Shown: positions 27,943 to 34,727 of the stretch, in pieces
Layout: every line of letters starts with the position of its first letter
Numbering within the stretch: the stretch's first letter is position 1
NCBI GenBank assembly: GCA_904393845.1
Contig: CAJFNB010000001.1
Coordinates: forward strand, 127,623-191,622
Length of the DNA: 64,000 nucleotides
DNA from: Candidatus Alloclostridium intestinigallinarum
GTDB taxonomy: Bacteria > Bacillota > Clostridia > Christensenellales > UBA3700
Direction: 5' to 3'
Notes under the pieces: generated by a model
Seen by the model: only the letters and a program-made list of their open reading frames with translations
What the model was told of the DNA's origin: nothing
The model's database searches: none
Translations under genes and position numbers: made by a program

Positions 27943-28413
27943 ATGAGTAAAAAGCAAATCGCAATATTGATAATCGCAGTAGCGGTCGCGGTGGCGGCGG
28001 CTTCCGTAGGCACGGCTTACGTGGTCGTAACGGGCAATTCGGAACTGGCTTTGGACGGAGCGGGCGACGAATTCACCGCCTCCGCCCGCATAGACGGCTT
28101 ACTGCCCGGACAGTCTTCAACGTCGGAATATAAGGCGCACGCTCCCGCGGACGCCGTGTTCACGATACTGCTTTTGGGCGGAGCGGGCGACGATTTGGGA
28201 AGATACCTGGACGTGACGGTAAGCGTAAACGGAAACGCGCTTTACAGCGGCAATTATCTTTCGTGCCGCGGCGTCATATTCACGGCGGACGTAAGCGGCG
28301 ACTTTACTTTTTCAATAACCTATTCCCTGCCGCAAAGCGTGGGAAACAGCGCTCAGGGCAAGGAATGTTCCGTAACGGCGCGCTGCACTCTGCACGAAAA
28401 AACGAGCGGCTGA
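27943..28413 (+). CDS. Small secreted/anchored protein, possibly a TasA/camelysin-like beta-sandwich
   Basis: 156 aa. N-terminal hydrophobic segment IAILIIAVAVAVAAASVG and a LLPGQSSTSEY motif placed like the PGD motif of TasA-type proteins. First gene of the locus. Confidence 0.5.
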   Translation: MSKKQIAILIIAVAVAVAAASVGTAYVVVTGNSELALDGAGDEFTASARIDGLLPGQSSTSEYKAHAPADAVFTILLLGGAGDDLGRYLDVTVSVNGNALYSGNYLSCRGVIFTADVSGDFTFSITYSLPQSVGNSAQGKECSVTARCTLHEKTSG

Positions 28414-28427
28414 GATAAAAAACGGCA

Positions 28428-29123
28428 ATGGATAAGACTAAAACAAAAAAAGTGTGGAACGTGGTTTCCTCAATAATAGTGGGCGTAGTACTTGTTGCGG
28501 CGGTATGCGCGCTGGGCGTGGCGATAGGCTACCGCGCCCAGGGGCAGACGCTTACCGTCGGCGGCAGCCAGCTGCGCCTTGTGCTCACGGGGTCGATGGA
28601 AGGCTCCGAAGAAGATTCCATACGCACGAATTCGGTTATTACGGTAAAGACCGTGCCCGAAGACGCCGGGCAGGCGCGCGAATTTATAGATTCGCTGGAA
28701 GTCGGCGACATAATCACCTTTTACGATACGTCCCTCGGCGCAAGCGCTCTCGTGGTAACTCACCGAATAGTCGGCATAACCGATAACGGAAACGGAGGAG
28801 TGAGCTTTACCACAAAAGGCGACGCGAACGATTCTCCCGATCCGTCCCCCGTCGACGAAAGCGACGTTATAGGGGTGGTGACCGGTTCCAATTATCCGTT
28901 GGGGGCGTTCCTGACTTTTCTCACGTCCGCCACGGGAATAGTGGTGTGCCTGATTATCCCTGCCGCAATTATCATGATATACGAAATTTTCCGCATCGCC
29001 TTTTTGGTACGCAAAGACAAAAAAGACAAGCGGAAGTCCGAATTGGACGAAAAGGAACAGGAAATAGAACGCCTGCGCCGCGAATTGGAAGAAATGAAGA
29101 AAAGAGGTGAAGACAATGACTGA
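28428..29123 (+). CDS. sipW: Signal peptidase I, archaeal/ER type (SipW-like), with extra C-terminal TM and charged tail
   Basis: N-terminal TM; LTGSMEGS (catalytic Ser), VTHRIVGI (His) and TKGDANDSPD. The C-terminal TM is followed by RKDKKDKRKSELDEKEQEIERLRRELEEMKKRGEDND. Confidence 0.85.
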   Translation: MDKTKTKKVWNVVSSIIVGVVLVAAVCALGVAIGYRAQGQTLTVGGSQLRLVLTGSMEGSEEDSIRTNSVITVKTVPEDAGQAREFIDSLEVGDIITFYDTSLGASALVVTHRIVGITDNGNGGVSFTTKGDANDSPDPSPVDESDVIGVVTGSNYPLGAFLTFLTSATGIVVCLIIPAAIIMIYEIFRIAFLVRKDKKDKRKSELDEKEQEIERLRRELEEMKKRGEDND

Positions 29124-32058: not shown

Positions 32059-32177
32059 TTTTCCCGCCGGAACCGTTCGGTAAACAGCGGAGTTTCTCCG
32101 CCCCAACATAAACCGCACGCACCTTTGGCGGAAACGTAGAAAACAATTTTTTGCTAAGGCAAAGAGAGGTATTAAGT

Positions 32178-34727
32178 ATGACAAAATCAAGCAAAAGAAC
32201 AGCTATCGTAATGGCTTTGATAACCGTTGCGCTTTGCGCTGCGGTGATTGCGGGCGCTACTTTCGCATTGTTCTCTTCCTCCGTAACCAACGACATCAAC
32301 GTAAACACGGGTGATATCGCCATTTCTTCCACGGTGGAATTGACTAATGCGTGGAGCACATCGCAGGGCGGCGAACAAGTCACCGCAGAAAACAGCGGAA
32401 GCGAAACTTCCCTTATTTTTCCCGCAACCGGCGGCAGTGTAAGCGTCGGTGAAGACGGACGTATATCCATTTCCGGCATGGGTCTGGGCGACGGCGCAAC
32501 TTTCAGCATTACCCTCGACATGAAATACTCCATCAATATGAAGTACTCTCTGGTACTCAAGACAAATACCGCAGACGATTTCCTGCGCAATAATCTCCAG
32601 GTAACCGTAGCGGATAATCCTGCAGTATCTTTGGCGGACGGAAGCGTATATATCATACCGTGGACTAACGCAGATTCGGTAACAGACTCAACCCCGGCAA
32701 GCGCACGCGTGACGGCTTCTTTCAGCCTTTCGCTTCCCTGGAGCGCAATTGACTCCGCTCCCGTCGGCGGTTCTTCCATCTCCCTTGCTCTCGTAACAAG
32801 CGGCGTTCAGGTGAACGCTTTGGCAGTATCCGGCAGTCCTTCCGGCAGCAACGAATATTACGTCACCAACCAGGACGAATTGGATAAGGCGCTTACGGCT
32901 ATGGAGAGCGGCGATTCCGTATACCTTGCCGGAGATGAAAGCAATTGGACAACCGCAAATATATCCTTCAACGAAAATAAGAGCATTTCCGTATACGGCA
33001 GCCGCGTAGGTACGCTTACGGTGAACGCTCTCAACGCTTCCATCGACTACTACATAGAGTACACCGAACTGATAAATTCCGCAGTTGTCGCGGCTAACTC
33101 CCTGCACATTTACGGACAAGTCGGCTCGGCACAGGTAAACGGCGGACGAATAGTCTTCGAATCGGAGTCAATCGTGGCAAAGCTTGCCGCCGTTCCCGCC
33201 GAAAATACGCACGTTGAAGTGGAGTTTGCGCAGAACACCGCCGTGACCAAATCCGTAACTGTAAACACTTCCGCAAGCGGTTCTTCCACCAATCTTAGCA
33301 TAGCGGAAAACGTTACCGTTCCTTCGCTCTCGGTTGAAGGAAGCGGCAAAGTTGCCATTGACAACAACGGCGTTATCGAAGATTCTACCGTTGACGAAGG
33401 CTCTTCCGTTACCGCCAACAGCAAGGTGACGGACGAAGCTTCCCTGCGCGGCGCGCTCGCCCTTGGCGGCGAAGTAACGCTGGAAAGCGATATTGCACTT
33501 AATGTTCCTTACTATGATACGACTTCTTTGGTGCCGATTTTAACAATAGTAAAGAACACTAATCTAAATCTTAATGGCAAAAAGATTTATCTAAGCCTTG
33601 CTCCCAATACTCAATTACTGCATACACCTGCCATCTTATGTGTTGATGGTGCAACTGTGGAAATTAACGGCGATGGTATTATCGACGCCGAAGCAGGCGA
33701 TAATAATTCTTATGGCATCAACATTATAAACAACGGTTCACTTACCGTAAATAGCGGTACAATATATGGCGCAATAACCGCAATTCAAGTACAAAAAGGT
33801 ACCCTCGTAATAAAAGACGGCTTTTTTGACTTCGCAGAAACGGCAAATGCTTCTGCTCCCGCAGAATATAAAAAATATATTATAAACGCAATTGACGCCA
33901 ATTGGAAAAATGGCTCTGCCAACATAACGATATATGGCGGAACTTTTGGGCACAATTACAGCGTCTCTCCGGAAGCAGACGGCAAGCTTTATTTACCCGA
34001 CGGCTACGGCGTTGTGCAGGAAGGCGATTACTACACCGTCAAGGAAATAGCGACCAATCCCGGCAAAGAATACCTTGCCGGTTCTGCCGCGGCTTTGAAC
34101 AACCTGATTAGCAACAGCGCTAAAAACATCGTCATAAGCGATGACTTCAATATCGGCACGGCAGGAGCTGTAACAACCGGCATTAACATTTCAAACGGAA
34201 CTTTCTCCATCGACCTGAATGGTCACACGCTTACCAATGTCGGTACCGGCTTTGCTTTTGCCGTCAGCGGCTCCGATACGCAACTTACCCTGAAAGATTC
34301 TTCCAAAGAACAGTCGGGCACGATTTACGGCGGTAAGGGCGGCAACAACCAGGTACTCAACGTTTCGGGCGGAGCAACCGTGGACATTTACGGTGGAAAT
34401 TATACCGTAGGTCCCGACAATAACGGTCAGGGCAACTCCTGCATCGAAGTTGCGGGTCTCGGCGGCACTATGAATATTTACGGCGGCACTTTTTCCAGCG
34501 AGGCGGCTTACAACGGTTTTTACTACGTGCTGAACACCACCCAGACGCAGGGCACGACGGGCGCGATATTTGTTTACGGCGGTAAATTCCTGCATTTCGA
34601 CCCTTCCAAGGGCGATGACAGCTCCACCTCCAACGGCGGCAGTAATTCTTCCGTTCAAAGCAGCTATCTTGCGGAAGGTTACGTTTCCGCAGCAAGCGGC
34701 GAATACTTCATCGTGCAGGAAGCCTGA
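32178..34727 (+). CDS. Large TasA-like N-domain fused to three Gly/Asn-rich beta-helix-like modules (putative adhesin subunit)
   Basis: GATFALFSSS signal end; NTGDIAISS and GLGDGATFSITL. There are six (I/V)YG(G/A) motifs and two modules ending YL(P/A)(D/E)GY...G(D/E)Y(Y/F)(T/I)V. ATG at 32178 follows an AGAGAGG RBS. Confidence 0.75.
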   Translation: MTKSSKRTAIVMALITVALCAAVIAGATFALFSSSVTNDINVNTGDIAISSTVELTNAWSTSQGGEQVTAENSGSETSLIFPATGGSVSVGEDGRISISGMGLGDGATFSITLDMKYSINMKYSLVLKTNTADDFLRNNLQVTVADNPAVSLADGSVYIIPWTNADSVTDSTPASARVTASFSLSLPWSAIDSAPVGGSSISLALVTSGVQVNALAVSGSPSGSNEYYVTNQDELDKALTAMESGDSVYLAGDESNWTTANISFNENKSISVYGSRVGTLTVNALNASIDYYIEYTELINSAVVAANSLHIYGQVGSAQVNGGRIVFESESIVAKLAAVPAENTHVEVEFAQNTAVTKSVTVNTSASGSSTNLSIAENVTVPSLSVEGSGKVAIDNNGVIEDSTVDEGSSVTANSKVTDEASLRGALALGGEVTLESDIALNVPYYDTTSLVPILTIVKNTNLNLNGKKIYLSLAPNTQLLHTPAILCVDGATVEINGDGIIDAEAGDNNSYGINIINNGSLTVNSGTIYGAITAIQVQKGTLVIKDGFFDFAETANASAPAEYKKYIINAIDANWKNGSANITIYGGTFGHNYSVSPEADGKLYLPDGYGVVQEGDYYTVKEIATNPGKEYLAGSAAALNNLISNSAKNIVISDDFNIGTAGAVTTGINISNGTFSIDLNGHTLTNVGTGFAFAVSGSDTQLTLKDSSKEQSGTIYGGKGGNNQVLNVSGGATVDIYGGNYTVGPDNNGQGNSCIEVAGLGGTMNIYGGTFSSEAAYNGFYYVLNTTQTQGTTGAIFVYGGKFLHFDPSKGDDSSTSNGGSNSSVQSSYLAEGYVSAASGEYFIVQEA

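Follow-up and report, generated by a model that had tools for sequence, protein, structure and literature searches.

A seven-gene locus that includes a signal peptidase of the SipW type was analyzed in a 64,000-nucleotide stretch of Candidatus Alloclostridium intestinigallinarum DNA (contig CAJFNB010000001.1, positions 127,623 to 191,622; hereafter the window), for which a matching sequence exists in the ENA metagenome contig ERZ27234793. The seven open reading frames (ORFs) are co-oriented on the plus strand and span 27943-34727, and all are present at the coordinates given by an earlier reading of the sequence (hereafter the original prediction). In order, they encode a small exported protein (g1), the signal peptidase (sipW), a membrane protein (g3), three short subunits (g4, g5, and g6), and a giant protein (g7). 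Gaps between consecutive genes from g1 through g7 measure 14, -8, 44, 18, 16, and 119 nucleotides (nt), the negative value denoting an 8-nt overlap between the start of g3 and the stop of sipW, and translational coupling of g3 to sipW is proposed. The start of g3 was revised to the codon giving MTESLF, which is the N-terminus of 13 homologues. For g7, the ATG is the likelier of two candidate starts, judging from orthologues of 846-850 amino acids (aa) that begin MTKSSKR.

Table 1. Genes and non-coding features of the locus, in window coordinates.
Feature	Position	Strand	Description
Conserved upstream element	27428-27540	+	CTTACCCCC.CCCATAAC..TTAT.TAATTTAACTAAAATTTT, then promoter-like site
Sigma-70-like promoter (putative)	27504-27532	+	TTGACT-17-TAACAT (pattern scan)
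Putative 5' leader	27541-27942	+	~400 nt; poorly conserved sequence
g1	27943-28413	+	156 aa; ATG 27943 backed by orthologues
sipW (gene 2)	28428-29123	+	231 aa
g3	29116-29958	+	280 aa; ATG 29116 preferred over listed GTG 29107
GC-rich hairpin	29966-29989	+	10 pairs, no U-tract, directly before g4 ribosome-binding site
g4	30003-30689	+	228 aa; short TasA-like subunit
g5	30708-31379	+	223 aa; short TasA-like subunit
g6	31396-32058	+	220 aa; short TasA-like subunit
g7	32178-34727	+	849 aa from ATG 32178; alternative TTG 32151 gives 858 aa
Intrinsic terminator	34750-34786	+	A-tract, 13-pair hairpin, U-tract

The product of the second gene passes TIGR02228, the model for archaeal/endoplasmic reticulum (ER)-type signal peptidase I, reaching 78.2 bits where 51.85 are required and covering positions 2-155 of the 158 in the profile, and scores 105.7 bits against the Bacillus SipW equivalog model NF046067, under its cut-off of 190. 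On the basis of these matches it is classed as a SipW-type archaeal/ER-type enzyme, a relative and not an equivalog of Bacillus SipW. The motifs GSME (from residue 55), THRIV (from 111), and GDAN (from 131) are exactly those predicted and contain Ser56, His112, and Asp132, making the enzyme one of the Ser/His and not the Ser/Lys type; a catalytic role of these residues is presumed from what is known of SipW and SEC11. Furthermore, a weak match with human SEC11A/C covers the His and GDxN region. The protein has an N-terminal transmembrane helix, a C-terminal hydrophobic segment, and a tail rich in K, R, and E.

Subunit family and its relationship to TasA

By BLASTP, g4, g5, g6, and the N-terminal ~215 residues of g7 are paralogues of one another, with identities of 24-36% and E values from 1e-10 to 7e-36; g6 stands nearest to the g7 N-domain (36% identity, E=7e-36). 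The four paralogues of the original prediction are confirmed, and g1 does not emerge from BLASTP as a clear further one. The four signal-peptide ends it quoted are exact in the sequence (GASFALFSQQ, GSTFALFAVN, GATFALFTDG, and GATFALFSSS) and share the form G(A/S)(T/S)FALF. Downstream, TG-x-(I/V)-D, (P/L)GD, and N-x-(G/S) correspond to the (near-)invariant alignment columns G44, G101, D102, and N112. The exported proteins of the locus have K-rich N-termini of the Sec type with no twin arginine, and the mature subunits are acidic (isoelectric point (pI) ~4.1). Neither a C-terminal LPXTG motif nor a C-terminal transmembrane helix was detected in g4-g7, and none of the seven locus proteins matched a sortase family in Pfam or NCBIfam. 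Ribosome-binding sites and conservation gave no usable pointer to a major subunit.

The relationship to TasA was established with family profiles. A profile of 12 sequences (A3) compared with all PDB sequences matched AbpX at E=8e-4 and TasA at E=0.02. With a profile of 30 sequences (A4) the TasA entries 8aur and 5of1 were matched at E=2e-6 and 3.5e-6, and the AbpX entries 9sj2 and 9rhp at 5e-4 and 1.1e-3 over ~150 aligned residues, with no unrelated PDB protein below E~0.9. The family stretch itldkitPGDkvefkitvtNksn aligned with VNLSNLKPGDKLTKDFQFENNGS of TasA (the PGDK..ENNG strand), and the C-terminal stretch NeYQdksvkltvtveAvQgNa (NEYQ...VEAVQGN) aligned with NKYQGNSIKLQFSFEATQWN. The window proteins themselves miss the TasA equivalog model (18.5 against 450) and the BsaA family model TIGR04090, for which g4 and its orthologue in a related locus (L003) reach 14.6 and 19 bits against a cut-off of 60. 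When 30 family members were scanned singly at E<=0.01, 21 matched the SipW-cognate signal peptide model TIGR04088 (best 5.9e-7) and 16 the TasA model. From these comparisons it is concluded that g4-g7N belong, at profile level, to the TasA superfamily, in a branch outside the current curated models. The TasA-like layout proposed by the original prediction is thus upheld as profile-level homology, but not by the Pfam and NCBIfam cut-offs applied to the window proteins.

An AlphaFold2 model of g6, built from the 30-sequence alignment, was obtained with a predicted local distance difference test score (pLDDT) of 86.3 and a predicted template modelling score (pTM) of 0.73. It contains a transmembrane/signal-peptide helix (residues 5-30), a segment without secondary structure (31-47), and an all-beta sandwich whose first strand spans 48-60. 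Conservation within the family peaks in this unstructured segment 31-47, where I39 and G44 are (near-)invariant. In TasA the donor strand consists of residues 28-38, and residues 48-61 form the self-complementing strand of the monomer (PMC9674648). Aligned by eye without gaps at an offset of +2, L30-F-T-D...T43-G-K-I-D-V48 of g6 falls on A28-F-N-D...S41-G-T-L-D-L46 of TasA. Model and alignment fit, but do not prove, a role of the N-terminal segment as a donor strand after cleavage.

The giant protein g7 comprises a SipW-type signal peptide (residues 1-30), a TasA-like domain (~31-215), a module A of ~190 residues (~225-415), and two mutually related adhesin-type modules of ~200 aa each, B (416-625) and C (636-849). 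The protein has no Pfam match and its C-terminus no PDB sequence match. Homologues of B and C (37-61% identity) carry, exactly at the aligned region, the Pfam domain Pectate_lyase_5 ("putative pectate lyase-like adhesive domain"), and it is through them that the adhesin role predicted for the giant finds its support. These homologues are otherwise SLH-anchored wall proteins or collagen-repeat proteins, module C being common to the collagen-repeat proteins P0190-P0194 and P0205. One binding module is thereby found with three display devices, namely an SLH anchor, a collagen stalk, and a TasA-like N-domain. Because the module otherwise sits on SLH anchors or collagen stalks, the comparison argues that the g7 N-domain is likewise an element of attachment or display.

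Comparison with related loci revealed a conserved gene order. The syntax of small transmembrane protein, SipW, transmembrane protein, short subunit, and giant(s) recurs in five other metagenomic loci, two from metagenome-assembled genomes of uncultured Clostridia found by single-protein scan (L001 and L002), one on a metagenome scaffold (L003), and two that are distant (L005 and L006). In L001-L003 the order g1-sipW-g3-g4-g5 is kept at 41-78% identity, followed by one to three genes of the g6/g7 type, whose number and C-terminal extension (216 to 1,180 aa) differ between loci; the proteins at the g6 position in L002 and L003, for example, are extended to 584 and 607 aa. The g4 orthogroup follows the transmembrane protein in 6/6 loci (identity 71% in L001, 64% in L003, and 45% in L002), and g5 has orthologues at 76%, 70%, and 48% in the same three. 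The distant loci, with SipW ~31% identical, contain sipW, a 101-104-aa single-pass transmembrane protein, one g4-type subunit, and one TasA-led giant of 928 or 2,020 aa, and a g1-like gene is present in L006 only.

A word-indexed protein search reached only 16 relatives of the family, and its extent was revealed by an exhaustive profile search, which yielded at least 5,959 clusters (50% identity) with E<=1e-3, of which 1,039 had E<=1e-30. By these counts the clade is very large, and it is unannotated in current databases. Among the best 150 family representatives, all led by the domain, 138 (92%) exceed 300 aa (median 640) and a single one has a C-terminal LPXTG, suggesting that the N-domain itself attaches long proteins. 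Some family members carry BspA-type leucine-rich repeat or beta-helix domains.

Accessory proteins, non-coding elements and gene neighbourhood

The protein g1 begins with a hydrophobic helix, followed by a small domain of ~125 residues that is rich in beta structure. It has orthologues in L001, L002, and L003 (63-41% identity) and in L006, no match in Pfam, NCBIfam, or PDB, and no clear BLASTP link to the g4-g7 paralogues. A four-sequence profile of g1 compared by hhalign with the profile of the TasA-like family gave a probability of 95.9% (E=5.8e-9), over only 28 C-terminal columns. Its candidate cleavage site VG(T/A)A↓Y(V/L)V follows the -3/-1 rule but has no FALF motif. The original prediction saw no TapA equivalent at the locus, and g1 indeed has no match with the TapA model TIGR04087, its likeness to TapA being one of position and size only; nevertheless, a protein at a tapA-like position with the C-terminal motif of the family leaves that statement uncertain. 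By analogy, g1 is a candidate for a membrane-proximal anchor or initiator subunit.

In g3 a single transmembrane helix is followed by an acidic linker of variable sequence, a C-terminal domain of ~120 aa that is strongly conserved, and a basic tail. Its conserved domain reads ...PYPEAYAALSPEEKRYVDDIL...GKKQLVRILLRRGRITARMQVQNN...REKPVDVRVE.... Not one of its 49 homologous clusters has a Pfam domain, and g3 itself has no relative in PDB, Pfam, NCBIfam, or PADLOC (best Pfam E=0.017, to an unrelated family), nor does it contain the DUF5305 domain of Tafi/AbpX-type accessory proteins. A defence-system reading was rejected, as PADLOC returned no matches. Judged by the positive-inside rule, the bulk of g3 is probably cytoplasmic. 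In L005 and L006 the slot of g3 is occupied by the 101-104-aa single-pass protein.

The spacer upstream of g1, put at ~850 bp in the original prediction, has a true length of 1,244 bp (26699-27942) and a GC content of 0.37-0.47. Within the spacer, conservation is confined to the upstream element of Table 1, which is 94% identical over 54 nt in L001 and 80% over 71 nt in L003 and lies ~450-500 nt upstream of g1 in the window, L001, and L003 alike. The sigma-70-like site within it is a putative promoter, from whose conserved position a leader of ~400 nt before g1 follows. The predicted fold of the putative leader is more stable than that of its shuffled versions (z = -3.4). An Rfam search of the 1.3-kb upstream region, with gathering thresholds and with E<=1, detected no RNA family, riboswitches included, and a cyclic di-GMP (c-di-GMP) riboswitch, which had been considered, was therefore not found in the leader. 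The GC-rich hairpin before g4 (-23.1 kcal/mol, z = -4.5) has a weaker counterpart at the g3-g4 position of L003 and none in L002, and may be a site of mRNA stabilisation or processing dividing the accessory from the subunit genes. The g3-g4 gap of L001 is much larger, at 415 nt, and within it (8223-8580) an element of ~180 nt was seen by eye twice in tandem (ccgtaaagcaaaattatttgccgatcggctg...aaaagcgcctaaaaggcgc). The strong terminator predicted after the last gene was confirmed as a hairpin and U-run at 34750-34781 (-24 kcal/mol, z = -3.3); it was missed by the pattern scan and shown by folding and by reading the sequence. It lies between the g7 stop and the end (34860) of a convergent GH2-like gene, which it could also serve.

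The neighbours of the locus are pstS and pstCA, the GH2-like gene, and a metallophosphoesterase gene; no regulator gene adjoins it among the neighbouring genes inspected. Directly upstream on the minus strand (23964-26698), the phosphate-uptake gene pstS (298 aa) is accompanied by an ORF of 608 aa. In the precomputed annotation of a matching contig (L004), pstS is labelled PBP_like_2 and the ORF BPD_transp_1 (ABC permease), and the size of the latter suggests a fused PstC-PstA permease. Downstream, at 37279-39191, a 421-aa metallophosphoesterase gene is followed by a gene of ~215 aa. The same pair, its second member a HAD-type hydrolase in L003, lies upstream of the locus in that scaffold (1-744), so the cassette has shifted relative to its neighbours. 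In the stretch from the start of pstS to the promoter of the locus, a 108-nt unit is present in three head-to-tail copies (26791-27095; 93% and ~85% identical), each opening with the perfect hairpin GGGAGCGTGGGACGCTCC. The hairpin alone occurs a fourth time at 3825-3842 on the minus strand (4 matches against 0.01 expected). No copy of the 108-nt unit was detected in L001-L003, and no Rfam family matches it. Elsewhere in the window a transfer-messenger RNA gene is located at 56978-57341 on the minus strand (Rfam RF00023, 179 bits).

Proposed assembly and alternative explanations

The locus is read here as encoding a SipW-processed, donor-strand-linked surface heteropolymer that displays adhesins, a reading given a probability of roughly 0.6. 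It builds on gene structure, paralogy, peptidase family, profile-level TasA homology, adhesin-module homology, gene order, and a beta-sandwich prediction, all directly supported. The genes would be transcribed as a single transcript from the conserved promoter ~400 nt upstream of g1. Sec would export g1 and g4-g7, and unusually long hydrophobic signal peptides ending G(A/S)(T/S)FA↓LF would hold them in the membrane. Cleavage by SipW at FA↓LF would then free an N-terminal segment of the form LF..(x)..I.V.TG.(I/V)D, which would enter the beta-sandwich of an adjacent subunit as a donor strand, as in TasA and BsaA. In such a polymer g4, g5, and g6 would be shaft or adaptors, while g7, with the same N-terminal polymerisation domain, would be the binding element, its adhesive modules carried distally or along the fibre. 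With its transmembrane helix and reduced domain, g1 is the candidate membrane-proximal anchor or initiator, and g3 would be an accessory membrane factor. SipW cleavage, donor-strand polymerisation, the order of major, minor, and tip subunits, and the roles of g1 and g3 are the steps that we infer.

Several results weigh against this reading. The Pfam family Peptidase_M73 (PF12389, cut-off 22.5) is missed by g5 (21.3), g6 (14.0), and g7 (14.4) and does not match g4, and TIGR04088 (cut-off 19) is missed by g4 (16.5) and g6 (15.5) and does not match g5 or g7, the g4 orthologue in L002 passing it at 22.1 bits. Of the models named in the original prediction, only TIGR02228 was therefore passed; the other two were borderline, and the family profiles then matched TasA and AbpX. 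Furthermore, g5 alone passes the Pfam family DUF11/CLIPPER (PF01345; 28.1 against 24.6). That match covers residues 91-180 (11-85 of the 114 profile positions) and overlaps the strand motif PGD..N.G, which is common to many beta-sandwich surface domains; CLIPPER is a CnaA-like stalk domain, often with an intramolecular isopeptide bond (PMC12617251). In Foldseek searches of two AlphaFold models against PDB, generic jelly-roll carbohydrate-binding modules ranked first with poor template modelling scores, and TasA and AbpX were absent from the top 50, the signal-peptide helix having been left in the models. The only filaments of the TasA superfamily to appear were AbpA (7ueg) at rank 11 or 25 and, at rank 30, the 0406 thread of Sulfolobus (7pnb), each at E~1e-2. 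A beta-sandwich, the fold that the original prediction required, is seen in the g6 model, but TasA did not emerge from Foldseek as a distinct match, an outcome that decides little in either direction. The same difficulty of structure search has been described for AbpA and monomeric TasA, as the rearrangement between monomer and fibre defeats such searches (PMC9245690). In addition, neither a cell-wall anchor nor a regulator was recognised at the locus.

A further result of this kind, the minimal composition of L005 and L006, bears on how far assembly proceeds. With one g4-type short subunit and one giant only, these loci may not build a long fibre, and they are consistent with a docking arrangement in which the N-domain is a non-covalent attachment module. 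One donor-strand link, or a few, would then fasten the giant g7 to a short membrane-tethered base of g1 and g4-g6, forming a stubby surface-display complex in place of a long polymer or matrix scaffold. This is also in agreement with the 92% of best family representatives that are long and multi-domain without LPXTG, with the presence of the same adhesive modules on SLH-anchored proteins, where the N-domain would replace the anchor, and with the reported membrane association of BsaA oligomers (PMC11580942). Three distinct short subunits are, however, kept as orthogroups, beyond the needs of a simple dock, and all characterised members of the superfamily (TasA, BsaA, AbpA, AbpX, and TafE) polymerise (PMC9674648, PMC11580942, PMC9245690, PMC12337348), so that docking is considered unlikely. 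It is more doubtful still that the proteins are independently secreted, soluble or wall-associated, and non-polymerising, acting as matrix components or binding proteins and sharing only a signal peptide of the SipW type and a fold. Polymerisation at this locus rests on inference, BsaB of C. perfringens, a TasA-like protein from a sipW operon, did not oligomerise (PMC11580942), and the TasA monomer is soluble (PMC9674648); yet family conservation is strongest in the segment that follows the cleavage site and is unstructured in the monomer model, which is hard to explain for monomers, and a tight operon with fixed order is kept across distant lineages.

Two other explanations fare worse. A spore-surface appendage (filaments or a nap of the endospore or exosporium), as opposed to a structure of the vegetative cell or biofilm matrix, would account for a module C common to collagen-repeat proteins, a layout typical of BclA-like exosporium proteins. 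Collagen-repeat proteins are not spore-specific, however, SLH-anchored wall proteins of vegetative cells carry these modules too, the promoter-like site is of the sigma-70 type, and no sporulation genes flank the locus, making a spore appendage very improbable. Taking Peptidase_M73 literally, the subunits would be camelysin-like secreted metalloproteases, for which the sub-threshold matches are the sole argument. These matches span residues ~10-60 only (signal peptide and first strand), inspection of the sequences showed no metal-binding motif, and TasA is a fibre protein, not a protease (PMC9674648); this reading, with matches confined to the signal-peptide region, was rejected as scarcely credible. 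Readings as a sortase pilus or a chaperone-usher pilus were also rejected, their hallmarks (sortase, LPXTG, usher, and chaperone) being absent.

Beyond the heteropolymer at this locus, a broader and rather speculative proposal can be made, one that is tentatively offered and probably overreaches. The SipW-cleaved N-domain may be a general plug-in that threads thousands of anchorless giants of uncultured Bacillota, by donor-strand complementation, onto a short ordered heteropolymeric stalk (g1 base, g4, g5, then cargo of the g6/g7 type), with assembly requiring g3 as a SipW-coupled membrane factor. If true, this would represent a modular and exchangeable adhesin-display fibre, and a third Gram-positive principle of anchoring and display beside sortase/LPXTG and SLH.

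Comparison with known systems

TasA-type fibres are a main protein scaffold of Gram-positive and archaeal biofilms and have been studied in few organisms, mostly as single-subunit polymers. If the domain described here polymerises or docks by strand donation, it would explain how large adhesins are attached in many uncultured Clostridia. The compact operon would then offer candidates for base, shaft, and tip with which the ordered assembly of a SipW-type heteropolymer could be studied.

The locus shares with tapA-sipW-tasA of B. subtilis and sipW-tasA-calY of B. cereus a dedicated ER-type peptidase encoded beside its substrates, signal peptides ending G-x-T-(F/W)-A followed by (A/L)F, an N-terminal segment that falls on the donor strand at +2, the PGD...N.G strand, and a C-terminal NxYQ...Q.N. 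A small exported protein upstream of sipW, here g1, is common to the tapA operon as well. The kinship with Bacillus TasA is nevertheless distant, reaching E=2e-6 by family profile only. Where the Bacillus systems have one or two subunits, four or five are present here, one with a 630-aa adhesin extension; in addition, the locus contains the orphan membrane protein g3, has no SinR/SinI genes nearby, and encodes a g1 without detectable homology to TapA.

The original prediction held that such an architecture had not been characterised in Clostridia-like organisms, which is overstated given that the C. perfringens operon sipW-bsaA-bsaB-bsaC has been studied experimentally (PMC11580942). That operon likewise combines a clostridial SipW with several TasA-like proteins and a large binding protein (BsaC, VWA), and it involves donor-strand exchange plus an intermolecular isopeptide lock (N-E-K triad); in the assembly proposed for it, strands are exchanged at the membrane before SipW cleaves (PMC11580942). 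By analogy, assembly here is proposed to follow the membrane-proximal model put forward for BsaA. The two systems differ in that g7 is TasA-led and BsaC is not, in the missed TIGR04090 model, in gene order, and in g1 and g3.

Archaeal Tafi pili offer a parallel in layout. Their loci encode the pilins TafA/TafE, the tip TafC, the anchor TafF, the peptidase TafD, and the accessory protein TafG (PMC11821415, PMC12337348), and the present locus follows a similar logic, uniting candidates for duplicated pilins, a variable multi-domain tip, an anchor, and a peptidase-associated accessory membrane protein with a dedicated peptidase. TafF, with a single transmembrane helix and a jelly roll (PMC12337348), resembles g1 in layout, and TafG may be compared with g3 by position. 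In both systems the enzymatic genes are conserved and the structural genes variable between loci. The Tafi systems differ in being archaeal with many twin-arginine (Tat) signals, as opposed to the Sec-type signals found here, and g3 is not a DUF5305 protein.

AbpX-like loci of Bacillota and Chloroflexota contain the second-best solved relative of the family, share an acidic pI of ~4, and are predicted to include minor or tip subunits and a peptidase, also in Clostridium amylolyticum (bioRxiv 10.64898/2026.01.04.697558). Their associated peptidase is described as having ten transmembrane helices, in contrast to the N-terminal helix and C-terminal hydrophobic segment of the SipW described here, and bacterial AbpX loci often include SLH/LPXTG anchors, sortases, and c-di-GMP enzymes, none of which are present. 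Chaperone-usher and sortase pili are functional analogues in which shaft and tip adhesin are encoded in one operon, the former also assembling by donor-strand complementation, but their fold family, secretion, and processing route are unrelated, and no usher, chaperone, sortase, or LPXTG occurs at this locus.

The design is consequently not new in kind, being preceded by tapA-sipW-tasA, the bsa operon, Tafi, and the AbpX-like loci. New in comparison with these systems are a very large branch that curated models miss and in which TasA-led giants without known anchors dominate, the three conserved orthogroups of short subunits, and the orphan, sipW-coupled g3.

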